Both the position numbers and the translations under genes were made by a program. Below are positions 3 through 56,365 of a stretch of DNA of 64,000 nt, one piece after another. The DNA lies in contig CAZTCF010000001.1 in NCBI GenBank assembly GCA_964612685.1, positions 83,399 to 147,398 on the forward strand, given 5' to 3'. The notes under the pieces were generated by a model. That model made no database searches. It was not told where the DNA came from and saw only the letters and a program-made list of their open reading frames with translations. The stretch comes from Candidatus Woesearchaeota archaeon (lineage in GTDB: Archaea; Nanobdellota; Nanobdellia; Pacearchaeales; GW2011-AR1). Positions within the stretch are counted from its first letter, which is position 1. Every line of letters starts with the position of its first letter.

Positions 3-152
3 CCTGTTTGTAGATTTTGTGTAACTTGTGGTGGTACTTGGCCAAATTATGCTGGGCAGGTTAGAGGAAATACTGGAGAAAGTTTAGCATTAGGAAGTCT
101 TTGTGCGGGTAGTGAAACTTGGGTTAGCAGAATGAACTTGTGTTGCAGATAA
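3..152 (+). CDS. C-terminal fragment of a cysteine-rich protein, truncated by the window edge
   Basis: Frame 3 is open from the window start to TAA at 150-152. The translation PVCRFCVTCGGTWPNYAGQ...SRMNLCCR has 6 Cys in 49 aa. It sits directly upstream of the Cys-rich paralog array. Confidence 0.35.
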   Translation, partial: PVCRFCVTCGGTWPNYAGQVRGNTGESLALGSLCAGSETWVSRMNLCCR

Positions 153-185
153 AATTCGAATTTTATATCTATTTTATTAAAAAAG

Positions 186-194
186 TATTTAAAA
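186..194 (+). promoter_or_regulatory. Putative archaeal TATA box for the first short/long Cys-rich gene cassette
   Basis: tatttaaaa is centred ~28 nt upstream of the ATG at 218, consistent with a leaderless transcript. A near-identical tatttaaa sits at the same distance from the paralog at 1807. Confidence 0.35.
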
Positions 195-217
195 TAAGTT
201 TGTTATTATATTTTAAG

Positions 218-505
218 ATGGTGAAGCTAATTATATATTCTAAAACGCTCTATACAATAATTGGAATTTTCATATCTTTATTGTTAATTGGCATTGGGGT
301 TTATGCTTATAATCAGCCCCCTCCAACGTATGTCGGGCATACTACTGGAGAATTAATGCCTTCCTCCTGCACAGGGTTTATTAGTGGTGTCGAGAATACT
401 GCTAATTCCTGGAGTTGTATTTCATCTTCAATACCTACTTGCACTGGTCCAGAACAGGGACTTACTTGGACAGGTTCTCTTTGGCAGTGTAAAACTTTAA
501 GTTAA
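218..505 (+). CDS. Small secreted cysteine-rich protein, short form (paralog A1)
   Basis: ORF track 140..505 starts at GTG; the ATG at 218 (MVKLIIYSK...) aligns with paralog A2. Hydrophobic signal ending GIGVYA|Y (SPase I-like). Shared core: GVYAY-x8-GHT-x2-E[LF]-x-P-x-C-x-G...NSW-x-C...C-x-G...W-[TS]-G-x2-W-x-C. 4 Cys. Confidence 0.7.
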   Translation: MVKLIIYSKTLYTIIGIFISLLLIGIGVYAYNQPPPTYVGHTTGELMPSSCTGFISGVENTANSWSCISSSIPTCTGPEQGLTWTGSLWQCKTLS

Positions 506-538
506 TTAAATAACAAAATATAACAAAAAATAATAAAG

Positions 539-1126
539 ATGAAAAACAAAAAGATCGAGATAAATATTCCGAATAAAATTTTCTATTCTTTTTTATTTTT
601 AATTTTTGTAATTGTTATGGGAGTTGAAGTTTATGCTTATAATCAGCCCCCTCCAACATATGTGGGTCATACTTTAAATGAACTTATGCCTTCATGCACT
701 GGATGGCTTAGGGGAACTGCTAATACTGCAAATTCTTGGGGTTGCACTTCTGTTCCTCCTGCTTGTGAAGGGGGGACAAAAGTTTTGCATTATAGTGGTG
801 GAGTGTGGAGTTGTTATACTGTTGATCAAGGATTTGAGTGTAATTGGGTTGGTTGGAATCCATCCATACCAGAGTATCCAAATCCGAGTGTGAGTCCTTG
901 TTATATTGAAGATACATATCAAAACGAAGCAGATTTTTCAGTAAATTTGTGTCCTTATTGGGATGGGGGAATGCAGATGATACCTCCTGGAGAATGGAGT
1001 GTATATACTGGAATGGTAGAACAAGAATATTGTAGTGGAGGTTCAATTACGGATGTTAGATATGCAGGAGTTTGCCCAGCTGAGGGAGATACAGTTTGCC
1101 ACTGGTCTACAATTTTACCTTATTAA
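539..1126 (+). CDS. Secreted cysteine-rich protein, long form (paralog B1)
   Basis: Same signal and core as A1 (VYAYNQPPPTYVGHTLNELMPSCTG...NSWGC). It adds a ~100-aa Cys-rich extension (ECNWVGWNPSIPEYPNPS..PCYIEDT...PPGEW...YCSGGSITD) and ends in ILPY. 10 Cys. Confidence 0.75.
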   Translation: MKNKKIEINIPNKIFYSFLFLIFVIVMGVEVYAYNQPPPTYVGHTLNELMPSCTGWLRGTANTANSWGCTSVPPACEGGTKVLHYSGGVWSCYTVDQGFECNWVGWNPSIPEYPNPSVSPCYIEDTYQNEADFSVNLCPYWDGGMQMIPPGEWSVYTGMVEQEYCSGGSITDVRYAGVCPAEGDTVCHWSTILPY

Positions 1127-1154
1127 TAAGTTTAAATAAATAAAATAAAAAACA

Positions 1155-1736
1155 ATGGAAAAAATAGAAATAAACCTATCGAATAAATTGTTTTATTCAG
1201 TAATTACTTTAATTGGGATAATTCTTGTGGGGGTCGGAGTTTATGCTTATAGTGGAACAGCTCCTGCAACGATGGGACATACTTTGAATGAATTGACGCC
1301 CCAATGTGATGGTATGATTAAAGGTACTTCCGGGGTTGCAAATTCTTGGAGTTGTACACCTAATCCTCCTACTTGTTCTGGTACTAATCAGGTTTTGCAA
1401 TGGACAGGGACTTCTTGGGCTTGTGTTGTTGTAGATATAGGTTATGAATGTAATTGGGTGGGTTGGAGTCCATCTTTTCCTTCATATCCTAATCCAAGTA
1501 CAAATCCTTGTTATATAGAAGACACTTGTGATGTTGAAAGTAGTTGTTATACTGGAGTTTGCCCTTGCTGGGATGAGGGTTATCAGATTACCCCTCCTGG
1601 AGAATGGCCTTATTATGCGGGAGTTGTACAACAACGTTATTGTAGTTCTGGTTCGATAACAGATGAAAGATATGTTTCTTTATGTGCTTCGGATATTGAT
1701 GAATATTGTTATTATAGTATAATTGAACCTTATTAA
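1155..1736 (+). CDS. Secreted cysteine-rich protein, long form (paralog B2)
   Basis: Collinear with B1 across the core and the extension (ECNWVGWSPSFPSYPNPS..PCYIEDT...PPGEW...YCSSGSITD). Ends in IEPY. Confidence 0.75.
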   Translation: MEKIEINLSNKLFYSVITLIGIILVGVGVYAYSGTAPATMGHTLNELTPQCDGMIKGTSGVANSWSCTPNPPTCSGTNQVLQWTGTSWACVVVDIGYECNWVGWSPSFPSYPNPSTNPCYIEDTCDVESSCYTGVCPCWDEGYQITPPGEWPYYAGVVQQRYCSSGSITDERYVSLCASDIDEYCYYSIIEPY

Positions 1737-1774
1737 ACAATTAATTAACCTAAGTTTTAAATTTTATCAAAAAT

Positions 1775-1782
1775 TATTTAAA
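1775..1782 (+). promoter_or_regulatory. Putative TATA box for the second short/long cassette
   Basis: tatttaaa lies ~28 nt upstream of the ATG at 1807. The surrounding sequence resembles that upstream of 218. Confidence 0.35.
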
Positions 1783-1806
1783 CAAGAATATCCTGTATTA
1801 TACAAG

Positions 1807-2091
1807 ATGGTGAAGATAATTTTGTATTCTAAGACACTCTATGCAATAATAGGGGTTTTCATATCCTTATTGTTAATTGGTATAGGAGTTTATGCTTATG
1901 GTGGGACTCTTCCTTCAACAATGGGCCATACCATTGGAGAATTCATGCCTTCATGTACTGGAATTGTAAGTGGTACTGCGAATACTGCAAATTCTTGGAC
2001 ATGTGCATCTGCAAATATTCCTGTTTGTACAGGTTCTACTCAGGGAATTAGTTGGACTGGATCTTTATGGTCGTGCAGATCTTTTTCATAA
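1807..2091 (+). CDS. Small secreted cysteine-rich protein, short form (paralog A2)
   Basis: The ORF track N-terminal extension (1723) overlaps B2. The ATG at 1807 gives MVKIILYSKTLYAIIGVFISLLLIGIGVYAY..., about 70% identical to A1 by eye. 4 Cys. Confidence 0.7.
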   Translation: MVKIILYSKTLYAIIGVFISLLLIGIGVYAYGGTLPSTMGHTIGEFMPSCTGIVSGTANTANSWTCASANIPVCTGSTQGISWTGSLWSCRSFS

Positions 2092-2126
2092 GTTAAGTTT
2101 AAATAATATAAAATACTAAAAATAGA

Positions 2127-2609
2127 ATGATGAATAAAAAGATAGAGGTGAATATTTCTAATAAATTACTTTATTCATTTTTAGCTCTTGTTATTGTTAT
2201 TATTTTGGGAATTGGAGTTTATGCTTACGGGGGAACTGCTCCAGCAACTATGGGGCATACTATGGGAGAATTAATGCCTTCATGCAATGGGTGGCTTAGG
2301 GGAACTTCTAACGATCCTAATTCTTGGAGTTGTACGCCTTCTCCTCCTTCATGTACTGGAACAAATCAAGCCTTACATTGGAGCGGAAGTGCTTGGAGTT
2401 GTGTAACTATTGATACTGGGACAGATTCATGTTCCTGGACCGGTTGGTATCCGGTTTGTCGTTGTTTTGGTACGGAAGATGCTCCTTGTTCATATAATGT
2501 TTATCCTATTCTTATGCATCAAGAATATTGTGTTGGAGGAACTATAACTCAAGAGAGGGATATTTATTGCTGCCCCACAGATGCAAATGGCCTTTGTATG
2601 GCTGTATAA
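2127..2609 (+). CDS. Secreted cysteine-rich protein, long form with divergent extension (paralog B3)
   Basis: Same signal and core (GIGVYAYGGTAPATMGHTMGELMPSCNG...NSWSC...WSGSAWSC). The C-terminal Cys-rich extension is shorter and different. Confidence 0.7.
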   Translation: MMNKKIEVNISNKLLYSFLALVIVIILGIGVYAYGGTAPATMGHTMGELMPSCNGWLRGTSNDPNSWSCTPSPPSCTGTNQALHWSGSAWSCVTIDTGTDSCSWTGWYPVCRCFGTEDAPCSYNVYPILMHQEYCVGGTITQERDIYCCPTDANGLCMAV

Positions 2610-3930: not shown

Positions 3931-4377
3931 TTATTTTGACAGAAGAAATTGTTTTGTAGTGCTTATAAACTTTTCCAGCTTCTCAGCATATTCTTTTAAC
4001 TTCTCTAAATCTACATTTATCTCTTTTCCCTGATAAAAAATCCTAAGAGCCACATTTTTTCTGAATTCTCCTATTCTTTCTGTACGTAGTTCATCAATCT
4101 TTCTGAACATCTCATACATCTCGAGGACTTCAAGGAAATTCTTGTCTTTTTTAAATAATTTTTTCACTTCTTCTATTTTTCCGAGCGGATTAGAGGATAT
4201 TGAACTTATTTTTTTCTTTTTCTTAGCATGCTTTAAAATTTCTTCGATGCTTGTTTCAATCATTTTTCTCCATCTCAGAATAAGATTTTTGATTACATCA
4301 CAAGTTTTCGTATACTTTAAACTTACATACAAAAGATGATCTGCACTTATTTTTTCTTGAATGATATCTTCCATCAA
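3931..4377 (-). CDS. Hypothetical Lys/Glu-rich helical protein immediately upstream of minD
   Basis: Intact 148-aa ORF, 16 nt from the minD start on the same strand. No recognisable motif. Confidence 0.45.
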   Translation of the reverse strand: MMEDIIQEKISADHLLYVSLKYTKTCDVIKNLILRWRKMIETSIEEILKHAKKKKKISSISSNPLGKIEEVKKLFKKDKNFLEVLEMYEMFRKIDELRTERIGEFRKNVALRIFYQGKEINVDLEKLKEYAEKLEKFISTTKQFLLSK

Positions 4378-4466
4378 TATAGTTATCCTTTTCCCCTCCT
4401 GTTTACCTTACCCATTTAGAAGCGTAATTTAGGAAGGTGTACTTATTTATATATCTTTTGCTGTTT

Positions 4467-4733
4467 TCAAGGAGTGAAAGTTTTTTGGATATTTTCAGGA
4501 TAAATGCTAAGATTAGGTGTGATTTTCAAAAAATAATCATGTAAAGTAGGTGTCTTTTCTATTTCTATTCTTGACATTCCTTTCCTATAGTTTTCATTTA
4601 TTCTATAATCTTCCATGTCTTGTTCTACTTTATCCTATATCTCATTATATTCTGTATCATCTAATACTTCTATTACTCCTTTTTTGATTGCTTTTTTTAA
4701 CAACCTTTCTGCTTCACTTTCTAGAGTTTTCAT
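4467..4733 (-). pseudogene. 88-codon reading frame interrupted by one in-frame TAG (possible pseudogene or two micro-ORFs)
   Basis: The ATG at 4733-4731 gives MKTLESEAERLLKKAIKKGVIEVLDDTEYNEI, then TAG (4637-4635). The same frame continues DKVEQDMEDYRINENYRKGMSRIEIEKTPTLHDYFLKITPNLSIYPENIQKTFTP to TGA at 4469-4467. Confidence 0.3.
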
Positions 4734-4772
4734 GATTATTAATGGGGCTAGGATTATATAAAGATTTTTGAA

Positions 4773-4985
4773 TTATGCCCTATAAGAAGGGGGATCATCC
4801 GCTCTTGTCATCTTAAAATTTATTCCTTTTTCTCTTAGTTCTTGAACAAAATTATCTTTGGCTTTTTCTATTTGTTTAATATATTCATATCCAAATAATT
4901 TGGCGTATGTTACTTTACCCTCTGCTTCCATTCTTTTTATCGTTTTTTGAGCAATTCCTTCTAATTTCTCTGGCATTTTATTCAC
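4773..4985 (-). CDS. Hypothetical small protein downstream of NAC
   Basis: 70-aa ORF whose start overlaps the NAC stop by 8 nt. No motif recognised. Confidence 0.4.
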   Translation of the reverse strand: MNKMPEKLEGIAQKTIKRMEAEGKVTYAKLFGYEYIKQIEKAKDNFVQELREKGINFKMTRADDPPSYRA

Positions 4986-8231: not shown

Positions 8232-9320
8232 ATGGCAGCTATGAGTAAAGATGCGTTAGAATCGCTATTAGAAGAGCTTGAAAGTCACAAAGGTAGACAC
8301 ACAGAATTAATTACAGTATATATTTCAGCAGGATATGATATTGTTTCGGTTCAGAAGCAGCTGGAGGCAGAAAAATCTACAGCTAAAAATATAAAATCCA
8401 CTTCGACAAGAAAGAATGTTGTAGACGCTTTAGATAAGATTGTTAGGTACATAAAGGATTTTAAGGGAAATCCTGAAAATGGGCTTGCTATCTTTTGTGG
8501 AAATGTTTCAAAAGTAGAGGGACAGGATGATTTACAATTATGGAGTGTTGAACCTCCTTTGCCTTTAAAGATTAGACTTTATAGGTGTGATAAGGATTTT
8601 GTTTTGGAACCATTAAGAGAGCTTTTAGAAGTATCCGAGATTTTTGCTTTGTTGGTTATGGATAGAAAAGAAGCTACAATAGGTGTTCTTGAAGGGAAGA
8701 GAATAGAAATTCTCCAAAAAATGACATCTGGGATTCCCAGTAAAGTACGTGCAGGGGGACAATCAAGCCAGCGTTTTCATAGGATAACCGAGGGTTTAAC
8801 TAAAGATTTTTATAAAAGAATTTCAGATGAGATGAAAAATTTATTTTATGAGAATAAAAAGTTGAAAGGTATATTAATTGGAGGCCCAATTCCAACTAAA
8901 GACGAGTTTATTGATGACGAATATCTACCAACTATTTTAAGAAATAAGATTATAGGAAGGGTGGACATAGGTGGAAGTGATGAATCTGGACTTAAGGAGT
9001 TGGTTGAGAAATCACAGGATATTCTTGCGAGTCAAGAAATTGTTTATGAGAAGAAACTTATGGAGAAGTTTTTCAATACTCTTGGTTCAAAACCAGATTT
9101 TGTGGTGTATAAACAAGATTCTGTTAAAAAAGCACTCGAATATGGTGCAGTTGATACCTTACTTTTATCTAAAGAATATGATAAATCCCTCGCAAAGGAA
9201 TTGAAGAAAATTGCAGATGAGAATGGAACCAAGGTTGAGCTGGTTTCGACAGATACGGAAGAGGGCAAACAATTTTTTCAGTTGTCTGGAGTTGGAGCTT
9301 TATTAAGGTATAAACTTTAA
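8232..9320 (+). CDS. prf1: Peptide chain release factor aRF1
   Basis: NIKS stop-recognition motif (TAKNIKSTSTRKN) and GGQ motif (RAGGQSSQRF). Confidence 0.9.
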   Translation: MAAMSKDALESLLEELESHKGRHTELITVYISAGYDIVSVQKQLEAEKSTAKNIKSTSTRKNVVDALDKIVRYIKDFKGNPENGLAIFCGNVSKVEGQDDLQLWSVEPPLPLKIRLYRCDKDFVLEPLRELLEVSEIFALLVMDRKEATIGVLEGKRIEILQKMTSGIPSKVRAGGQSSQRFHRITEGLTKDFYKRISDEMKNLFYENKKLKGILIGGPIPTKDEFIDDEYLPTILRNKIIGRVDIGGSDESGLKELVEKSQDILASQEIVYEKKLMEKFFNTLGSKPDFVVYKQDSVKKALEYGAVDTLLLSKEYDKSLAKELKKIADENGTKVELVSTDTEEGKQFFQLSGVGALLRYKL

Positions 9321-9832
9321 AATATCTTTATTATTTTATTTGGTATTATAGAAGAATCTTCGCAATGATATACTTTATGGGTTAGCTGATTAAAGAAACC
9401 TTTTAATCTTAAATTATTTTTTTTTATTAAGCTTTTATTTTCTTTATTTATTTTTAACTGTGGAGGTTTGAATGTGGTGGGAGAGAAATCAAAACATTTT
9501 TCAAATTCATATATTCCAAAATCTAAATCTTCCTGAGTGATTTCTTTGTATAAGAATTCTCTATAAGTATGATTTATTCCATGCAGGTAAAGTTTTTTCT
9601 CTAGCGATAAGATAGATTCACACCATTCCTTATTTTCTGATATAAGATTATTGTTATAATTTGGGATTACATAAAGTATATCTGGATTATATTTTTCTAT
9701 TTCTGGACAGGATATTCCAGGAGTTATATCATCAATTTCTGTTGGATTAATCAACCTTATTAGAAATAATAATATTAAGAGAGTTAATATTGAAAAAAAT
9801 ATTGCTTTTCTTATATTTCCTCTTTTTTTCAT
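9317..9832 (-). CDS. Membrane-anchored hypothetical protein (possibly DUF2334/deacetylase-like)
   Basis: N-terminal TM helix. The LHGINHTYREF block loosely resembles DUF2334. It sits at the edge of the glycosylation cluster. Confidence 0.3.
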   Translation of the reverse strand: MKKRGNIRKAIFFSILTLLILLFLIRLINPTEIDDITPGISCPEIEKYNPDILYVIPNYNNNLISENKEWCESILSLEKKLYLHGINHTYREFLYKEITQEDLDFGIYEFEKCFDFSPTTFKPPQLKINKENKSLIKKNNLRLKGFFNQLTHKVYHCEDSSIIPNKIIKIF

Positions 9833-9904
9833 GTATCTGAAAGAAATTTTGTTATTAAATAATTATTGATAATGCTTTTAATGCCTTGAAATTTAATATG
9901 TTTA

Positions 9905-10618
9905 ATGAAATTATCAATTGTATTTCCAGCATATAATGAGGAATCTAGAATTTTGCCGGTATTAAATAGATATTATTCTTTCTTTATGGACAATTTGAGC
10001 AACTCATTTGAATTTATAATTGTGCCGAATAATTGTTCAGATAACACAGTTGAGGTTGTAAATAATTTTTTAAGGGGTAAGAAAAATGTTGCAATAAAAA
10101 CTATCCCAAATAATGTTGGCAAAGGGAGGGCTATTCTTGTTGGATTTAAATTGGCAAAAGGAGATCTAATCGGATTTGTTGATTCAGATGAGAGCACATC
10201 TCCAGAAGAATTTTATAAATTATATAAAAATATTGGGGATTTTAAAGGAATTATCGCTTCAAGAAGGATGAAAAGATCTTTAGTTTCTCCTAGGAGAGAT
10301 ATCTATAAACGATTTAGTAGTTTTTTGTTTAATATTTTTGTTAGACTATTTTTTGGATTAAATTTTAGAGATACTCAATGTGGGGCAAAGATATTCAGGA
10401 GAGAAGTAATAACAAAATTTGTTCCTATTTCTATGTTAAGTGATTGGGCATTTGATATTGATTTATTATATTTCTGTAAGAGAAATAAATATCCTATTTT
10501 AGAATTTCCCATTTTCTGGAAAGATAGTTCTCATTCTCATTTAACAACCTTTCAAGGTATCAAATCTGTTTTATTTTTAATAAAATATAGATTATTCTTT
10601 AAATACCCAAAATATTAA
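9905..10618 (+). CDS. Family 2 glycosyltransferase (dolichyl/polyprenyl-phosphate sugar synthase-like, GtrB/Dpm1-like)
   Basis: IVFPAYNEE start, DxD-type VDSDEST, RDTQCGAKIF block. No long membrane domain. Confidence 0.75.
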   Translation: MKLSIVFPAYNEESRILPVLNRYYSFFMDNLSNSFEFIIVPNNCSDNTVEVVNNFLRGKKNVAIKTIPNNVGKGRAILVGFKLAKGDLIGFVDSDESTSPEEFYKLYKNIGDFKGIIASRRMKRSLVSPRRDIYKRFSSFLFNIFVRLFFGLNFRDTQCGAKIFRREVITKFVPISMLSDWAFDIDLLYFCKRNKYPILEFPIFWKDSSHSHLTTFQGIKSVLFLIKYRLFFKYPKY

Positions 10619-50019: not shown

Positions 50020-50172
50020 ATGCCTAAAAAGCAGATAATTGTAAAATTTGAGGGGTCTGAGATTCTTGAGAGAAAAGCTTCTAAGTTTGGAACTGGTGCT
50101 CATGTAATTATTCCTAAAGAATACATAAACAAAAAAGTAAAAATTATTATGGAGGATGAAGATGACAAGTAA
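50020..50172 (+). CDS. DUF2080-like / AbrB-type small protein
   Basis: The ATG at 50020 gives MPKKQIIVKFEGSEILERKASKFGTGAHVIIPKEYINKKVKIIMEDEDDK. The pattern (V.F.G.E..E....K.G....V.IPKEWIGKKVKII) matches my recollection of archaeal DUF2080, described as a putative transposon-encoded protein. It overlaps the giant ORF start by 17 nt. Confidence 0.5.
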   Translation: MPKKQIIVKFEGSEILERKASKFGTGAHVIIPKEYINKKVKIIMEDEDDK

Positions 50173-53100
50173 AAAGTATTTTTTTGCTTTAATCAGCATA
50201 ATTTTGATAACACTCTTATCCTATGAGGTTTTAGCAGGGACTAATGTTCCAGATTGTGGAATAACAATCAATATCTCAGGACAATATGAATTAAACGCGG
50301 GAATTTCTGGGACAGCAACTTGTCTAACAATTAATACAAGTAATATAGAACTAGATTGCAAAGGAAATACTATTTCTTATGGTTCAGATGGAGTTAATGG
50401 AAGAATTGGAATATCTGTTGCCCTTGGAACAGTTTATCTTGAAAATATCACAATAAAAAATTGCATAATTCAAGACACAAATCCTGCTGGAACCACGGGG
50501 TATGGAATATATGCATTAAGAACATCTAATTCATATATAATTAACAATACAATTAATACAAGCGGAACTGCTACAAATCACGGGATTTATTTATCTACTG
50601 CAAGTCAAAATAATCTTCTTGAAAATAATACCATAAATGCTTATGGAAGCACTACAGGAAACTATGGGATTTATTTAATTTATCAATCAAATAATAACAC
50701 AATTAGAAACAATGAAGTAAAGGCAACAGGAACAACAACAAGCTATGCACTCATGCTTTATAGCTCAGAATATAATTTAATAGAAAACAACAATTTTTCA
50801 AGTTACACTCTTTTAACAACAGGAAATTCAGATATGAATGTAGTTTATTTATACTATGGTTCAAGATATAATATTTTAAGAAATAATTACATTTATTCAG
50901 ATGCTGAAGCAAGAAATTACCATATTTATCTAAATTTAAATAATAATTATAATATCATTGCAAATAATACTATAATTCCAAATGATGATGAAGGAACAAA
51001 CCCTGGAATTTATATTCTTGGTTCTGATTACAATCTTGTAGAGAATAATACCATTAGAACAAATGGAACAACAGCCAATTATGGGGTTTGGTTAGGAGCA
51101 TCTTCAACAGGAAATATGATTAATAAAAATAATATTATCACAAATGGAACTACAACCAACAATTACGGAATTTATTTGGTAAGTGCACTTTACAATAATA
51201 TAACAGAAAATCAGATCTCCTCAAATGGATTAACAACAGGTAATGCAGGAATAACTTTATCAAGTGCCCAAAGAAATTACCTTGCAAGAAATAATATTTC
51301 TACAAGTGGGACAACAACAGGATATGGAATTTATTTGACTGGTTCTGATTATGACACAGTAGAAGATAATGATATTTCTACATTTGGAACAAGCACTGCA
51401 AATGATGGAATCTATTTAATCTCTTCTACAAACAATAACATAATAAACAACAGAATAACTGCAAATAGCACCTCTTCTGGAAATATTGGTATTGCTTTAT
51501 ATACCTCAACAGGAAATTCTTATGTTTATAATAATACTATAAAAACTGATGGAACAACTACAAATTATGGTATTTTATTACAGACTGCAAATAATAATTC
51601 GATAGTAAATAATCAAATATCAACCAGTGGAACAACTACAACAAATCATGGAATTTATCTTTATATAAGTGCAAATGCAAACAAAATCTACTATAATAAT
51701 ATCTCTACATATGGCACAACAACAAATCATGGGATTTCACTTAGCACAACTTCAGATGGAAATGAAATTGTTGGAAATTATATAATAGCTAATGGCTCAA
51801 CAACAGCCTCCGCAACAACAACAAATAATTTTGGAATTGCTGCTGCTACAAGTTGTTATAATAATCTTATGGAAAATAATACAATACTAAATTCCGGAGG
51901 AAGGTATAACTATGGTATATATATTTCAGTAGAATCTGGATATTCTACAATTAGAGGAAATAATATTACTACTGGAGGAAGTGGGGCCACAAATGCAGGA
52001 ATTTATCTTTCAGAAAGCAGAAACAACCTTCTAGAAGAAAATATAATCTCTACTTCAGGTTCTGCTACAGATTACGGTATTTATCTGTATTCTAATGCAA
52101 AATATAATTTTGTTAAGAAAAATAATATTACAACCTCAGGAAGTACTAATTCTTATGGAATTCTTCTTGATGCAGTAATTCCAAACTTCCCCCACAATAA
52201 TTCTTTTCAAGAAAATAATTTTATTAGTATTGCTGGAACAGAATTTAGATTTGCTGATGCAGAAATAGATGAAAATTATTTAATTAGCCAGATTATTGAC
52301 AGTTACTTATTTACTGGAATTGGAAGCAAAATGATTGTTAGAAATGACTCTGCAGGAGAAATAAAATTCTTAGATAGATTAACTGGTTCTGGAACAGGAT
52401 TTAGTGATGATGTATACATTTTAGAGAATTATGCTTTTATTGATTCGAGTATCCCAGGATTAAACAAGTCAGCAGAGATAACCATTTATAATTTACCAAC
52501 AACTTCAAATGAATTACAAATTTACAGGAATGGTATAATCTGCAGTGATTGTTTTAATTTAACTTCAATGCAAGCAGGAAATGTAACATTTAATGTAACA
52601 CAAGGAGGAGGATACTCAATTAATTCCTCAAGTTCATCTCCTTTAATAGAATTAGATTTCCCTGAAAATGATTATTTAACAAATCAGCAAAATATTAATT
52701 TTAATTTTACAGCTAGAGATGATTCTGTAGGAGATTTAAATTGTAGCATTTATATTGATTCTATTTTAAATCAAACCAATTCAACAACTCAAAATAATAC
52801 TCTAACTAATTTTGCTGCTAGTGGATTAACTGAAGGAAATCATAACTGGAATATTGAATGTTTTGATTCAGCAGGAAATAGAAATATTTCTGAAACAATA
52901 AATTTTACAATAACAATTTCACAATCATCCTCATTATTTAATTATCCAGAGAATAAATCTTATTTTAATAATTTAGACTTTATATTGTTAAATTATACTG
53001 TTTTAGATTTAGATTTAAAGATAATGACTGCTTGGATTTATGGGGATGAAATTCTTCTAAATACAACTTCAGGATTAACTAATGGTTCATCTTTAGTTTA

Positions 53101-56100
53101 CAATTGGACAAGTTTAGATTTAGGACAATATAACTGGTCTATAATAATCTGGAATGGAATAAAGAACTCTTCTATTGAATATTCTTACTTTAATAATATT
53201 AATTTAACAATAAATTGTGAAGCAGGAGGAGATTATCTTGAAGATCCAACTGTTTTAATTCAAGGAAGAATAAATGACAGTAGCGGGATAGTTTCATTAA
53301 GTTCACAAATAATTAATATTTCTATTTACAATGATTCCACAGAGGAAATAATCACTTCTTCAAATATAACCACAGAATCAAATGGTGTATTTAATAGTAT
53401 ATTTCCTGGATTGGAAATAGGAAATTACACTGTTTATACAAAAGTTAATTATCAAGGAATTGAAATAAATAGTTCAGACTCATTTAAAATTTCTCTTGGA
53501 TATGAAGCAGGTTACAATGCAGGATTTATTGCTGGAAATGAATCAGGATATATTTCTGGATTTGATTATGGTAATATCACAGGATTTAATTTAGGAAATA
53601 TCACAGGATTTATACTTGGAAACAATACTGGTTTCACATTAGGAAATACAACTGGATTTGTATACGGTAACCTCACAGGATTTGTTTTAGGAAATTCAAC
53701 TGGTTACATTTTAGGTAATGCAACTGGATTTACATTAGGAAATTATACTGGGTTTATATTAGGAAATCAAACAGGATTTATAATAGGAAATATTTCAGGT
53801 TTCAATCTTGGTAATTCAACCGGTTTTACACTTGGAAATTATACTGGATTCATATTAGGAAACATTTCAGGATTCTACTTTGGAAACCAGACAGGTTATA
53901 CTACAGGTTACAATGCAGGATTTATTGCTGGAAATGAATCAGGATATATTTCTGGATTTGATTATGGTAATATCACAGGATTTAATTTAGGAAATATCAC
54001 AGGATTTATACTTGGAAACAATACTGGTTTCACATTGGGCAACTCAACTGGTTATACCTTGGGATTTAACACAGGTAATATAACCGGATTTACTCTAGGT
54101 AATACTACCGGCTTTGTATACGGAAATAATACTGGTTATATTTTAGGATTTAATACAGGCAACTTAACAGGCTTCACATTAGGAAACACAACTGGCTTCG
54201 TTCTTGGCAACTCTACAGGTTATATTTTAGGTAATGCAACTGGCTTTGTATATGGTAACACAACAGGATTCATATTAGGAAACACAACGGGATTTGTATA
54301 TGGAAATATCACTGGATTTGCTTTGGGTAATTCAACAGGATTTACACTTGGAAATTTAACAGGTTATATTCTTGGAAATCAAACAGGTTATAACGCAGGA
54401 TTCAGCACAGGAAACACAACTGGATTTAATCTAGGAAATACTACAGGTTTCACATACGGAAATCTTTCAGGATTTGATCTAGGTAATGCCACGGGTTATA
54501 CCTTGGGTTATAATGCTGGTGTTAATGTTAGCAATCGCACTTCAGCATCCCTAGTCTTGGATAAGATTGCAAGTTTGCAAAATATAACAAATGGAACTAT
54601 TTCATATAATGTAACTTTAAGATTAACAAACAAAGGAGGAAGCAATTCAACAAATGTTAACATAACAGATTTAGATTATGGTTCTAACTTTACAATTGGA
54701 AATTTAACAGCAGGAGAATCAATTACAAGAAGCTATCTTATTAATTTCACAAGAAATATGACAACATATTCAAATGCAACATCAATTGCTCATGCATATG
54801 GTATTGATTCTTATTCATCTGGACAAATTTTGGCAAACTCTAGCTCAATGAATTTACCTGTCCCATCAAATGAATCTGGGCAGCAATTAACTTTGATTAA
54901 GAATGTATTTTATATTAATCAAACATTCACAGATGTAAATTATACTGTTAGTTTTGAAGTTATTAATTCCGGAGGATCAGATTTAACAGGGATTACAATA
55001 ATTGATGACGATTTGGGTATTTCTGATGTAATAAGCTTGAGTAAAACACAAAGTTATACCTACTCGGGATCATTAATAATATCTAAGAATCAGGATAATA
55101 AAGAGCAAATATTTTCAATAGCAAGAGGAACTGTAAATGCTGTTATTTATTCTTCAAATCAAATAAAAGTTTTAATTCCAGGATATGGTGGAGGTCCAAA
55201 TGATGTAAGCATTAATGCTCCTACATCTGTTTTTAATAACACCAATTTCAATGTGGATATAACTGTGAAGAATAAAAATAAAGACATAGGCCAGGACTTT
55301 GTTGTAACTTATTGGCTCTTGAGCAATGACGAGATTTCAATATATTCAACTGGAGCTCAAACTCTTTATGTTGGAGGAAATGATAATACCAATGCAACTA
55401 CAATTGTATTCTTATCTCCTGCAATTAATGGAACATATAAAATAAGGGCAAATGTGAGCGGAACAGGAGTAAGTGTTCAAGCTACTGCTTTTTCAACAAT
55501 TCTTGTTACGTATCCTTCAAATGAAACTGCAAATGAAACTCCAGTAAATCCTCCGCACGGAGGAGGTGGAGGTAGCAGAATAAGCTGTGTATATATCTGG
55601 GAGTGTGGTTCTTGGAGCCTATGTGCAGATGATGGAACTCAATCAAGAACATGTACTAATACAGGAACCTGTACAGGAATAGAAGGAAAACCAGCAGAAA
55701 AAATGAATTGCTTAGAGGTTTCTTCTGATATTGTATTAAAATTAAGTCAATTAAATTTAACTGAAAATCAAAGTTTAGAATTTAATATTGATTTGATTGA
55801 GAAGAAATCCTATGAAAACAAAGATATACAGATAACATATTCTATCTTTAATAAAACAAATATAGAGGTATTCACTAAAACAGAGACTCGTTCACTTGAG
55901 ACAAATATAAGTTATAAGGAGATTTTGGATGAATTAATGCTTACTCCAGGAGAATATACATTAAAAGTACATATATTCTATGGCAACTCTCAAAGTTCAG
56001 AAGAGGTACAATCATTTATTATAAAAGAAGAAGGTAAAAATAATATTGGAAGTAAATTACTTCTTGAGTTAACACCCGAAACAAATTTTTTAACTTACTT

Positions 56101-56365
56101 GGCAATATTTGTAATCCTTATCTTATTAATATCGCTGTTTGTGATTATGAAAAAGAAGAGAGATGTTGATGAAGTTGACTTATTGATAAAAGAAGGAAAA
56201 AGGAATATTGACAATGAAAATTTTGATGAAGCATTAGATGTCTATCCTGTTCTTAAGAGCTTATATAAACACAAATATAAAGGGGACCCATCTGCTTATG
56301 AAAAGATTACTTCTTACTCTCAATTTATTTTAAAAAGTATTAAGGATAAATTAAAAAAAGACTAG
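50156..56365 (+). CDS. Giant (2,069 aa) membrane-anchored surface protein: parallel beta-helix repeats, beta-sandwich modules, GNxTGFxL sequon array, Cys-rich module and C-terminal TM anchor
   Basis: Signal-like N-terminus (KKYFFALISIILITLLSYEVLAG; alternative ATG at 50162 after GGAGG). Roughly two dozen ~22-aa PbH1-type repeats (NNTI.T.GT.T.NYGIYL) lie at ~50340-52260. The GNxTGFxL array is at 53498-54520. CARDB/DUF11-like segments lie at ~54540-55500. The Cys module is at 55586-55711. The TM helix FLTYLAIFVILILLISLFVIM (56087-56149) is followed by KKKR and a ~70-aa tail. Confidence 0.85.
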   Translation: MKMTSKKYFFALISIILITLLSYEVLAGTNVPDCGITINISGQYELNAGISGTATCLTINTSNIELDCKGNTISYGSDGVNGRIGISVALGTVYLENITIKNCIIQDTNPAGTTGYGIYALRTSNSYIINNTINTSGTATNHGIYLSTASQNNLLENNTINAYGSTTGNYGIYLIYQSNNNTIRNNEVKATGTTTSYALMLYSSEYNLIENNNFSSYTLLTTGNSDMNVVYLYYGSRYNILRNNYIYSDAEARNYHIYLNLNNNYNIIANNTIIPNDDEGTNPGIYILGSDYNLVENNTIRTNGTTANYGVWLGASSTGNMINKNNIITNGTTTNNYGIYLVSALYNNITENQISSNGLTTGNAGITLSSAQRNYLARNNISTSGTTTGYGIYLTGSDYDTVEDNDISTFGTSTANDGIYLISSTNNNIINNRITANSTSSGNIGIALYTSTGNSYVYNNTIKTDGTTTNYGILLQTANNNSIVNNQISTSGTTTTNHGIYLYISANANKIYYNNISTYGTTTNHGISLSTTSDGNEIVGNYIIANGSTTASATTTNNFGIAAATSCYNNLMENNTILNSGGRYNYGIYISVESGYSTIRGNNITTGGSGATNAGIYLSESRNNLLEENIISTSGSATDYGIYLYSNAKYNFVKKNNITTSGSTNSYGILLDAVIPNFPHNNSFQENNFISIAGTEFRFADAEIDENYLISQIIDSYLFTGIGSKMIVRNDSAGEIKFLDRLTGSGTGFSDDVYILENYAFIDSSIPGLNKSAEITIYNLPTTSNELQIYRNGIICSDCFNLTSMQAGNVTFNVTQGGGYSINSSSSSPLIELDFPENDYLTNQQNINFNFTARDDSVGDLNCSIYIDSILNQTNSTTQNNTLTNFAASGLTEGNHNWNIECFDSAGNRNISETINFTITISQSSSLFNYPENKSYFNNLDFILLNYTVLDLDLKIMTAWIYGDEILLNTTSGLTNGSSLVYNWTSLDLGQYNWSIIIWNGIKNSSIEYSYFNNINLTINCEAGGDYLEDPTVLIQGRINDSSGIVSLSSQIINISIYNDSTEEIITSSNITTESNGVFNSIFPGLEIGNYTVYTKVNYQGIEINSSDSFKISLGYEAGYNAGFIAGNESGYISGFDYGNITGFNLGNITGFILGNNTGFTLGNTTGFVYGNLTGFVLGNSTGYILGNATGFTLGNYTGFILGNQTGFIIGNISGFNLGNSTGFTLGNYTGFILGNISGFYFGNQTGYTTGYNAGFIAGNESGYISGFDYGNITGFNLGNITGFILGNNTGFTLGNSTGYTLGFNTGNITGFTLGNTTGFVYGNNTGYILGFNTGNLTGFTLGNTTGFVLGNSTGYILGNATGFVYGNTTGFILGNTTGFVYGNITGFALGNSTGFTLGNLTGYILGNQTGYNAGFSTGNTTGFNLGNTTGFTYGNLSGFDLGNATGYTLGYNAGVNVSNRTSASLVLDKIASLQNITNGTISYNVTLRLTNKGGSNSTNVNITDLDYGSNFTIGNLTAGESITRSYLINFTRNMTTYSNATSIAHAYGIDSYSSGQILANSSSMNLPVPSNESGQQLTLIKNVFYINQTFTDVNYTVSFEVINSGGSDLTGITIIDDDLGISDVISLSKTQSYTYSGSLIISKNQDNKEQIFSIARGTVNAVIYSSNQIKVLIPGYGGGPNDVSINAPTSVFNNTNFNVDITVKNKNKDIGQDFVVTYWLLSNDEISIYSTGAQTLYVGGNDNTNATTIVFLSPAINGTYKIRANVSGTGVSVQATAFSTILVTYPSNETANETPVNPPHGGGGGSRISCVYIWECGSWSLCADDGTQSRTCTNTGTCTGIEGKPAEKMNCLEVSSDIVLKLSQLNLTENQSLEFNIDLIEKKSYENKDIQITYSIFNKTNIEVFTKTETRSLETNISYKEILDELMLTPGEYTLKVHIFYGNSQSSEEVQSFIIKEEGKNNIGSKLLLELTPETNFLTYLAIFVILILLISLFVIMKKKRDVDEVDLLIKEGKRNIDNENFDEALDVYPVLKSLYKHKYKGDPSAYEKITSYSQFILKSIKDKLKKD
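53498..54520 (+). repeat. In-frame 24-nt (octapeptide GNxTGFxL) tandem repeat array inside the giant ORF
   Basis: About 40 consecutive units. By my count, about 37 carry an N-x-S/T sequon (NIT, NTT, NST, NAT, NLT, NYT, NQT, NIS, NES). Confidence 0.9.
53508..53640 (+). repeat. Perfect 133-nt internal duplication (partner at 53904-54036)
   Basis: Base-by-base comparison shows identity from caggttacaatgc... to ...ggtttcacatt. The offset is 396 nt (132 codons). The flanking bases differ on both sides. Confidence 0.9.

Follow-up and report, generated by a model that had tools for sequence, protein, structure and literature searches.

A tandem array of short and long cysteine-rich proteins with a shared, predicted export module in a Candidatus Woesearchaeota archaeon

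The gene array at the start of the window

The window analyzed here is a stretch of 64,000 nucleotides (nt) on contig CAZTCF010000001.1 (positions 83,399 to 147,398 of the forward strand) in the assembly GCA_964612685.1 of a Candidatus Woesearchaeota archaeon. It opens with a tandem array of paralogous genes for small, cysteine-rich and putatively exported proteins that come in a short and a long form, and this array is the subject of the present study. Five consecutive open reading frames (ORFs) on the plus strand, denoted A1, B1, B2, A2 and B3, were called at its start, in agreement with a preceding description made from the letters and ORF translations only (the sequence-only reading), which had reported five such same-strand paralogs. 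The proteins are built on a common N-terminal module. In order, this module consists of a basic n-region with the motif [ST]N[KR]xxY, a 14-residue hydrophobic core, a c-region of the form GxGVYA, a fixed 10-residue linker rich in Pro, Ser and Thr, the motif GH[ST]xxE, and a disulfide-closed beta-hairpin with 14-16 residues between its Cys residues. The mature part of the module, comprising the linker, GH[ST]xxE and the first hairpin, is referred to as the stem. B1, B2 and B3 carry every element of the module, and A1 and A2 carry all of them except SN[KR], for which they read SKTLY, like short members of the family elsewhere.

The first short gene, A1 (218..505, 95 amino acids (aa)), has its signal in codons 1-30 (218-307), ending in GIGVYA. 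The remaining 65 aa are stem only, with the linker, GHTTGE and two Cys hairpins that together hold 4 Cys. It is followed by the long genes B1 (539..1126, 195 aa; signal in codons 1-33, 539-637) and B2 (1155..1736, 193 aa; signal in codons 1-31, 1155-1247). B1 consists of a stem with the same NQPPPTYVGHT linker as A1 and a Cys-rich head, with 10 mature Cys in total, while B2 combines a stem with a long head of the type that it has in common with B1 and has 13 mature Cys. The second short gene, A2 (1807..2091, 94 aa; signal in codons 1-30, 1807-1896), again encodes a stem-only mature part with 4 Cys; the mature forms of both short proteins count about 65 residues and two hairpins each. The last gene, B3 (2127..2609, 160 aa; signal in codons 1-33, 2127-2225), encodes a stem with a minimal head of the form CxWxGW...QxYCxxGxITxxRxVxCC and 12 mature Cys. 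The gaps inside the two groups measure 33, 28 and 35 nt, as short as had been described, and B1 and B2 end in LPY and EPY, respectively, as was also noted before.

When the first ~95 residues of the five proteins are aligned, 27 columns are invariant, four of them Cys, which bears out the shared core of the earlier description. They include Y, G, VYAY, P, GHT, E, P, C, G, NSW, C, P, C, G, G, W and C. The form G[IV]GVYA given for the end of the signal does not apply to B1, which reads GVEVYA. A hidden Markov model (HMM) of the N-terminal module detects these five ORFs and no others in the window, with E values of 1e-23 to 1e-30 and the next best match at 0.24. The similarity of the five ORFs is therefore far beyond chance.

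A Cys-rich fragment at the window edge had been counted with the array as well. It corresponds to the 3' end of a sixth gene (3..152, plus strand; 49 codons and the stop), whose full copy is found on the public version of the same contig, JGI 3300010355 Ga0116242_10000290 (hereafter L001), at 9351-9935. The full-length protein of 194 aa starts with the N-terminal module common to all members (MKKKVKRLDISNRLFYSLIVFAVFIGLAVGVFAA...PGH), continues with the fibre-like motif GNVGIGTTSPSYKLHV and ends in the Cys-rich C-terminus seen in the window. Extension of the contig upstream thus adds one complete gene, bringing the array to six.

Promoters and transcription units

Both short genes are preceded by an element resembling an archaeal B recognition element and TATA box (BRE/TATA). 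These are AAAAAGTATTTAAA at 180..193 (plus strand), in which 25 nt separate the end of TTTAAA from the A1 start codon (ATG), and AAAAATTATTTAAA at 1769..1782 (plus strand), which ends 25 nt before the ATG of A2. The near-identical TATA-like element that had been reported in front of each short gene is thereby recovered. Its common form, CAAAAAnTATTTAAA, with TTTAAA at the same 25 nt from the ATG, is kept in sequence and spacing upstream of the short genes at two related loci, L006 and L009. Archaeal TATA boxes are centered near -27. Judging from this promoter geometry, the element would act as a promoter with transcription starting at or next to the ATG, which implies that the mRNA from the short genes is leaderless. 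B3 also has a TTTAAA, 24 nt upstream, and may have a transcription start of its own, while no well-spaced TTTAAA is found upstream of B1 and B2.

Within the array, oligo-T runs between genes occur only 3' of B3, where a T5 run (2611-2615) and a T6 run (2624-2629) on the plus strand form a putative archaeal terminator. Two transcription units that each start at a short gene, A1-B1-B2 and A2-B3, as had been suggested before, are plausible in view of the conserved BRE/TATA elements and the position of these T runs. A TTTTT run is also present at 2082-2086 within the last codons of A2, just before the stop; it could attenuate read-through into B3 and in this way set the ratio of short to long protein. 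A scan for sigma-70 promoters gave fewer matches than shuffled sequence did, the bacterial consensus being uninformative for an archaeon. Alternative starts at a GTG at 140 for A1 and a TTG at 1723 for A2 were rejected, as the orthologs and the promoter indicate the ATGs at 218 and 1807.

The N-terminal module and its predicted export signal

The N-terminal module is sharply defined across the family. The uncharged stretch is exactly 20 aa long in 152 of 174 members, and the positions around the VYA boundary vary little, with Ala at -1 in 173 members, Val at -3 in 160, and Gly at -4 in 154 and at -6 in 137. Position +1 is occupied by Tyr, Leu, Phe or Trp. A His stands at +11 in 133 of these proteins. 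The n-region has a net charge of +4.2, compared to 0.47 K+R and 1.9 D+E in the first 30 mature residues, and this charge bias predicts an orientation with the N-terminus in and the C-terminus out. All three parts of a Sec signal for signal peptidase I (SPase I) can be recognized, i.e. a positive n-region, an h-region and small residues at -3 and -1. The predicted anatomy is that of a 14-residue h-region and a 6-residue c-region with a (-3, -1) SPase I site at VYA. The two classes differ in their n-regions, which follow MVK[IL][IV].S.[KR]T.Y in short members and a K-rich ..IE[IV]N[IL]SNK..Y in long ones.

Other types of export or anchoring signal were looked for. The sequence-only reading had noted the absence of a class III (pilin) signal and of a PGF-CTERM, and model searches together with inspection of the C-termini bear this out. 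The five window proteins end in ...KTLS, ...TILPY, ...IIEPY, ...RSFS and ...LCMAV without the hydrophobic tail of a PGF-CTERM. A lipobox is not found either, as Cys is missing from all five signals in the window and first appears ~20 residues after VYA; family-wide, a Cys precedes VYA in only 6 of 173 members and never at the boundary. The conserved [ST]-N-[KR]-x-x-Y has a single basic residue and does not form a Tat motif.

Distribution of the family

Searches of curated libraries returned no known family. Against Pfam and NCBIfam, the five window proteins gave nothing above noise, the sole matches being weak ones between SoxE_N, a membrane-anchor model, and the hydrophobic segment. In PHROGs, no match was obtained for A1, B1, B2 and B3, while the sixth gene matches tail-fibre PHROGs weakly (7e-5) through its GNVGIGTT segment. 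Neither the whole-family profile nor a head-domain profile matched PDB sequences. Furthermore, B1 and mature B3 were modeled with AlphaFold2 (AF2), and Foldseek matched neither model to a PDB structure at E <= 0.001, nor the B1 model to an entry of BFVD. The earlier impression that the proteins belong to no recognized family therefore stands, and the HMM searches placed the core in no well-characterized family.

The proteins are nevertheless not alone. A word-indexed search yielded 65 close homologs, all unnamed or "hypothetical" and one labeled Nanoarchaeota. An exhaustive HMM search then gave 2,568 cluster representatives (50% identity) at E <= 1e-3, and 1,045 of these also pass E <= 1e-10. 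With few exceptions the proteins measure 90-300 aa and show one N-terminal pattern, MKKKRG..I.I[NH][LF][ST]N[RK]WLYTLIAIGILAIIGVGVYA[YL]G(T)xxPSxFGHSxGE[IL]APPxxCxxGQxLxWxGxxWxC, after which they diverge. Annotation look-ups of the clusters returned "hypothetical protein" only, a Pfam scan of 118 relatives gave single stray matches, and no description of the family was found in curated libraries or the searchable literature. No relatives turned up when the viral contigs of IMG/VR were scanned twice. The array is a local expansion of a very large, uncurated DPANN family and not an isolated oddity. In total, the scanned loci hold 122 family genes, often two to four per locus, and among 79 metagenome loci same-strand tandems are common. 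Clustering of the neighbors at these 79 loci recovered housekeeping genes only (ValRS, TBP, MCM, DNA ligase, L15e, MinD), with no recurrent secretion, pilus or sortase-like machinery next to the family genes.

Hairpins, heads, cysteines and sequons

The AF2 model of B1 (mean predicted local distance difference test (pLDDT) score of 74) comprises a helix at residues 12-30, low-confidence coil up to residue 50, and two beta-hairpins at 56-70 and 81-94 with a pLDDT of 84-90. Mature B3 was modeled with a mean pLDDT of 81.7, which rises to about 90 in the head. In the models of the long proteins the head is built of beta structure. The two Cys that close each hairpin of the window proteins enclose 15 residues. 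The hairpins are homologous by hhalign, in which the profile of hairpin 1 matches that of hairpin 2 with a probability of 90% and an E value of 1.7e-6. The ~55-aa core with four Cys described before is therefore present in all five proteins, but it consists of two tandem copies of one disulfide hairpin. It is also not the conserved unit as a whole. The first loop, with 14-16 residues between its Cys, is kept in 146 of about 173 members, and the family-wide unit is consequently the signal, the linker, GH[ST]xxE and one hairpin.

The heads of B1, B2 and B3 follow the pattern CxWxGW...C...QxYCxxGxITxxRxVxCC...C, with an insertion of ~35 residues in B1 and B2. A search with the head profile found this domain within the family only.

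The number of mature Cys is even in 162 of 173 members (binomial p = 1e-35); from A1 to B3 in gene order the counts are 4, 10, 13, 4 and 12. B2 is an exception, as its 13 Cys form an odd number against even counts in all its paralogs and in 94% of the family, and one of its Cys may be free or engaged in an intermolecular bond. N-glycosylation sequons (N-x-S/T, where x is not Pro) were compared to the numbers expected from shuffling. The five mature window proteins contain none, compared to 5.4 expected (P = 0.0014), and 172 family members contain 52 versus 260 +/- 13, a five-fold depletion. In the same window, 18 housekeeping proteins are neutral in this respect (46 versus 43 +/- 6), whereas the 2,069-aa surface protein is enriched (113 versus 58 +/- 7). 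The latter is encoded at 50156-56365 on the plus strand and has right-handed beta-helix/NosD and Big_13 domains, and its sequon content suggests a heavily glycosylated giant surface protein.

Since the family is depleted in sequons and not neutral, its members probably meet the oligosaccharyltransferase and are selected to stay bare. Bare surfaces fit tight packing or binding surfaces. The paired Cys, the positive-inside bias and the avoidance of sequons are together those of extracytoplasmic, disulfide-bonded proteins, and the even Cys counts and the sequon depletion in particular argue for export.

Short and long genes as partners

The array lies between the gene for MetRS (L001 7880-9301) and a 114-aa tRNA_bind gene (2654-2998 of the window, plus strand). 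A genome scan with the five paralogs gave three loci in Woesearchaeota metagenome-assembled genomes (MAGs), and one of these, L006, stems from a related Candidatus Woesearchaeota MAG. The order MetRS, short gene, long gene, tRNA_bind and, on the opposite strand, MinD is found on other Woesearchaeota contigs, at L006, L009 and L016. L015 has a short gene, two long genes and tRNA_bind, while L007 and L010 have a single long gene at the locus. Further pairs in which the long gene follows the short one occur at L089 and L091, and in all the short-then-long order recurs in at least seven loci beyond the window. The pair proteins of the syntenic loci have diverged from those of the window to identities as low as 31-35%. 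The minimal arrangement of L006 (fibre gene, short, long) has been expanded in the window genome by the insertion of A1-B1-B2.

Orthologs at L006 were also used to estimate selection. A2 and its ortholog P0014 are 90% identical with a dN/dS of 0.17, B3 and its ortholog are 82% identical with a dN/dS of 0.25, and the sixth gene has a dN/dS of 0.19. For the neighboring tRNA_bind, MinD and NAC genes, the values against L006 are 0.04-0.10. These values show real genes under purifying selection, although the array changes two to four times as fast as the housekeeping genes around it.

The view that the short and long genes encode partners, as proposed in the sequence-only reading, gains from this conserved order and from the homogenization of their stems. 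Ten short/long pairs were compared from the linker to the end of hairpin 1; two lie in the window, six were located on other contigs and two were assigned from a shared contig. Partners from the same genome have a stem identity of 0.80, compared to 0.45-0.49 for stems of the same class between genomes (Mann-Whitney p about 1e-6). In the signal the relation is reversed, with an identity of 0.40 between partners and 0.51-0.53 within a class. At the DNA level, the partner stems are 96-100% identical in L009, L089 and L091, but over the 15 signal codons directly before the stem the identity is only 58-67%. The window pairs and L016 show 8-14 synonymous differences in the partner stems. The same pattern is visible within the window. 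The linkers of A1 and B1 share YNQPPPTYVGHT and those of A2, B2 and B3 share Y[GS]GT[AL]P[AS]TMGHT. In nucleotide identity the linkers agree best within an operon (0.79 for both A1/B1 and A2/B3), whereas that of the signals follows class (0.86 for A1/A2 and 0.76 for B1/B3).

The near-identity of the partner stems and its drop in the signal point to repeated, independent gene conversion of the mature N-terminus, with a tract that begins exactly at VYA. Such a tract marks VYA as a functional boundary and favors cleavage at this site. Matching stems are at least tolerated and probably favored.

Relatives and comparable systems

Larger members of the family carry recognizable domains behind the module. 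At L070 (2389-3711), the module is followed by GNVGIGTT fibre motifs and a C-terminal Peptidase_S74 domain (1.3e-17), and at L071 (4262-5617) and L084 (1570-2718) by a C-terminal Hint or pretoxin-Hint domain. The members of 370-450 aa at L070, L071, L084 and L068 (4-1131) combine GNVGIGTT motifs with S74 or with Hint/pretoxin-Hint ending in ...VHN. In addition, one relative matches Shufflon_N, the constant region of PilV, at 9e-17, and one family member among the 118 relatives matches TSP1_ADAMTS at 3e-12. The Peptidase_S74 intramolecular chaperone is a hallmark of trimeric tail-fibre and tailspike proteins. The link to phage tail fibres that had been suggested earlier from GHT..EL has some basis in the GNVGIGTT motifs and S74 domains of relatives and in the weak tail-fibre matches of the sixth gene. 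It does not extend to the motif itself, as the five window proteins match neither the tail fibre repeat (PF03406) nor the tail collar (PF07484) model at E <= 10.

Several known systems are comparable in layout. Tail fibres, tailspikes and S74 fibres likewise consist of a conserved N-terminal docking part and an exchangeable C-terminal binding part. The family differs from them in being chromosomal and archaeal, in its absence from the IMG/VR scans and in starting with a Sec-type signal or anchor; moreover, the window proteins are tiny and Cys-rich and lack fibre repeats and S74. A second parallel is with the YSIRK-G/S, KxYKxGKxW and ESPR signals of bacterial surface proteins, in which an n-region motif, here [ST]N[KR]xxY, is common to hundreds of otherwise unrelated surface proteins. 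By analogy, the n-region motif suggests a dedicated role in targeting or timing. However, neither the motif nor the domain of life is shared with these signals, and in the present family the conservation continues through the c-region into the first ~35 mature residues.

The hairpin itself recurs outside the family. CxxGQxLxWxGxxWxC is found in 12-15 tandem copies in the giant, secreted and adhesin-like proteins P0070, P0090, P0128, P0145 and P0185 (1,200-2,700 aa), where it matches profile positions ~51-110 and stands beside YadA_head repeats or a proprotein-convertase P-domain. No Pfam model covers this repeat. Unlike the family, these giants lack the N-terminal module and GH[ST]xxE, and their composition looks bacterial. 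Finally, the head of the long proteins resembles the thrombospondin type 1 repeat (TSR) in starting with CxWxGW and in having a later conserved Arg strand followed by several disulfides. It differs in the spacing of the Trp and Arg segments; B1, B2 and B3 match neither PF00090 nor PF19030 at E <= 10, and Foldseek returned no TSR.

Interpretation

Attachment to other cells is the presumed way of life of DPANN archaea. To our knowledge, the molecules through which they make this contact are almost unknown, most of their genes being listed as "hypothetical". For the array, the interpretation that we tentatively prefer, at somewhat less than even confidence, is that it encodes co-expressed, exported and disulfide-stapled surface proteins of a stem-only and a stem-plus-head type, the stems of which are kept matched and which co-assemble for contact. 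A short gene and the long gene or genes behind it would be transcribed together from a leaderless BRE/TATA promoter, and recurrent gene conversion from the VYA boundary would keep the stems of the partners alike. The proteins would be exported by Sec and then cleaved at VYA. Identical short and long stems could dock to one site or to each other, giving an assembly on the surface in which subunits with and without a head are mixed, free of N-glycans, and in which the heads would contact a host cell or substrate. The co-assembly, the retention at the surface and the adhesive role are what we infer from the patterns described above. A role of the heads in contact is suggested by the adhesin and fibre heads of relatives and by the episymbiotic lifestyle proposed for DPANN (PMC8204110).

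Several points weigh against this interpretation. No assembly or secretion machinery is encoded nearby and the neighbors are housekeeping genes. The window proteins have no recognizable adhesin domain and their models match nothing in the PDB. The conserved housekeeping location fits a core component of the envelope equally well, and the homogenization of the stems could be plain gene conversion between neighboring paralogs, unrelated to assembly. Furthermore, an uncharged stretch of 20 residues that is followed by Tyr, Leu, Phe or Trp at +1 might just as well stay uncleaved and anchor the protein in the membrane, and if the signal is cleaved, no identified feature would hold the proteins on the cell.

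A more far-reaching form of the co-assembly interpretation is that the short/long pairs are subunits of an unrecognized, Sec-exported and disulfide-stapled surface fibre or filament system of Woesearchaeota/DPANN. Such a system would need no pilus machinery, as the subunits would join through their conserved mature N-termini, by strand donation or a metal-bridged collar for instance. Interchangeable heads (S74 fibre, Hint, PilV-like, Cys-rich), drawn from the more than 2,500 clusters of the family, would set host or substrate recognition. We consider this extension rather unlikely and offer it as a speculation.

Among the alternatives, the one that survives best is a signal-anchor, in which the hydrophobic segment stays uncleaved. 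The short and long proteins would then be type II membrane proteins tethered by a TM helix, and next to the membrane GH[ST]xxE and the hairpins would form a stalk that carries the head and may be oligomeric, as trimeric fibres are. Retention of the segment is favored by its invariant 20-residue length, which is that of a transmembrane (TM) helix flanked by aromatics at the VYA boundary and which AF2 builds as one 19-residue helix. It is also favored by its strong conservation, with Y16, G28, G30 and VYA kept at 90% or more, which is unusual for a disposable signal, and by the circumstance that members with a C-terminal S74 or Hint domain have no other possible anchor. The weak SoxE_N matches point in the same direction. 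Cleavage, on the other hand, is favored by the c-region, by the conversion boundary and by the fixed spacing of His at +11 from the VYA boundary. GxGVYA has all the marks of a c-region, namely Gly as helix breaker at -6 and -4 and Val and Ala at -3 and -1, and leaves an h-region of 14 residues, within the range of cleavable signals. The concerted evolution of the partners starts only after VYA, whereas the hydrophobic segment is class-specific. On balance cleavage at VYA seems the better assumption, and the signal-anchor, although a serious contender, is judged unlikely.

The proteins could also be soluble secreted effectors, i.e. small toxins, archaeocin-like antimicrobials or competition factors, with the short forms as antagonists or co-factors. 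They are indeed small, Cys-rich and acidic with a Sec-type signal, pretoxin-Hint, which is typical of polymorphic toxins, occurs in some relatives, and the copy number at the locus differs between related genomes. However, the array contains no immunity-like gene or toxin domain and is under purifying selection, and its housekeeping position is fixed across genomes in which the pair proteins are only 31-35% identical to those of the window. A conserved stem common to fibre- and adhesin-type relatives fits anchoring or docking better than a diffusible toxin. An effector function is therefore regarded as improbable.

Type IV pilin-like subunits, in which the short proteins would be major and the long ones minor pilins, have been largely refuted and are given very little weight. 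Like pilins, these are small proteins outside the cytoplasm in which the hydrophobic N-terminus is conserved and the C-terminal domain varies and in some cases has disulfide bonds, and short and long forms are encoded in tandem; the Shufflon_N match of one relative can be added. In contrast to pilins, the family has an SPase I-like site after the helix. Pilin_N (PF07790) and arch_flag_Nterm (TIGR02537) did not match the five proteins at E <= 10 in Pfam and NCBIfam, nor did any other pilin model. No class III site with [KR][GAS] directly before the helix is present in N-termini such as MVKLIIYSK, MKNKKIEINIPNK and MEKIEINLSNK, and many members across the family start with MVKI.. or MEKIEI.. and have no conserved [KR][GA] site ahead of the hydrophobic stretch, a polar and charged SNR/K lying between any candidate site and the helix. 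The helix in B1 is confined to residues 12-30, about 19 residues compared to about 50 in pilins, and no pilus ATPase, platform or prepilin peptidase was found near any of roughly 90 loci.

A virus or provirus remnant or cargo, such as a set of tail-fibre-like receptor-binding genes, would account for the fibre motifs and S74 in relatives, the weak tail-fibre PHROGs of the sixth gene and the variable gene content of the locus, but it is the least credible alternative, as the IMG/VR scans were negative, the five window proteins have no PHROG matches, no hallmark gene lies nearby, and MetRS, its split C-domain, MinD, NAC, Sec61-beta and ValRS flank the array in every genome.

A conserved N-terminal targeting or docking part combined with variable heads in tandem paralogs is already familiar from tail fibres, pilins and motif-bearing signal proteins. 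What appears to be new is the module itself, the pairing of a stem-only with a stem-plus-head protein fixed in a housekeeping neighborhood, and a conversion tract bounded by a signal-peptidase site in combination with the avoidance of sequons. It is unusual that conversion between partner stems stops at the predicted signal-peptidase site, and that sequons are avoided while a giant surface protein of the same genome is rich in them. The family is large and uncurated, with a sharply defined export-and-stem module, with adhesin and fibre heads in its larger members, and with conserved short/long pairs among its smallest ones, set in the housekeeping core of Woesearchaeota genomes. Should the stems mediate assembly, a new archaeal system for surface display or filaments would be at hand, and the HMM and peptide targets would provide a handle on host-contact proteins in metagenomes and metaproteomes. 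Should they not, a well-delimited new domain family worth curating remains.

Neighboring genes and genomic setting

Beyond the array, the window is ordinary archaeal chromosome, AT-rich with 31% GC, and also encodes ValRS, eRF1, topoisomerase, PolB, Cdc48, PheRS, MinD, NAC and Sec61-beta. The protein of the adjoining tRNA_bind gene scores 112.4 bits against the MetRS C-terminal/beta-subunit domain of NCBIfam (cut-off 116.65). An assignment to the secretion chaperone CsaA was rejected, with a score of 66.8 against a cut-off of 119.65. As the gene is of the MetRS type and not CsaA, the array simply lies between MetRS and its split C-terminal domain. MetRS is thus split, and in several Woesearchaeota genomes a surface-protein array separates its core gene from tRNA_bind.

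Some further genes were noted beside members of the family. At L007, a 243-aa ORF (4237-4968) is located between MetRS and tRNA_bind beside the single long gene. At L010, a Cys-rich ORF of 111 aa without the N-terminal module (8976-9311) lies beside the single long gene, and many neighboring genes on this contig appear fragmented. At L011/L012 (7447-9644), a gene for a presenilin-family intramembrane protease (PSH/SPP) lies directly behind two tandem family members (168 aa and the 221-aa P0048), an arrangement seen in one genomic context only. Enzymes of this class cut TM segments in type II orientation. Lastly, L060 (2748-4406) encodes an extremely Cys-rich protein of 552 aa with a signal or anchor, homologs of which adjoin family genes in 8 loci. 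This protein contains a canonical thrombospondin-type WxxWxxCSKTCGGG motif, yet gave no Pfam match at E <= 0.001.

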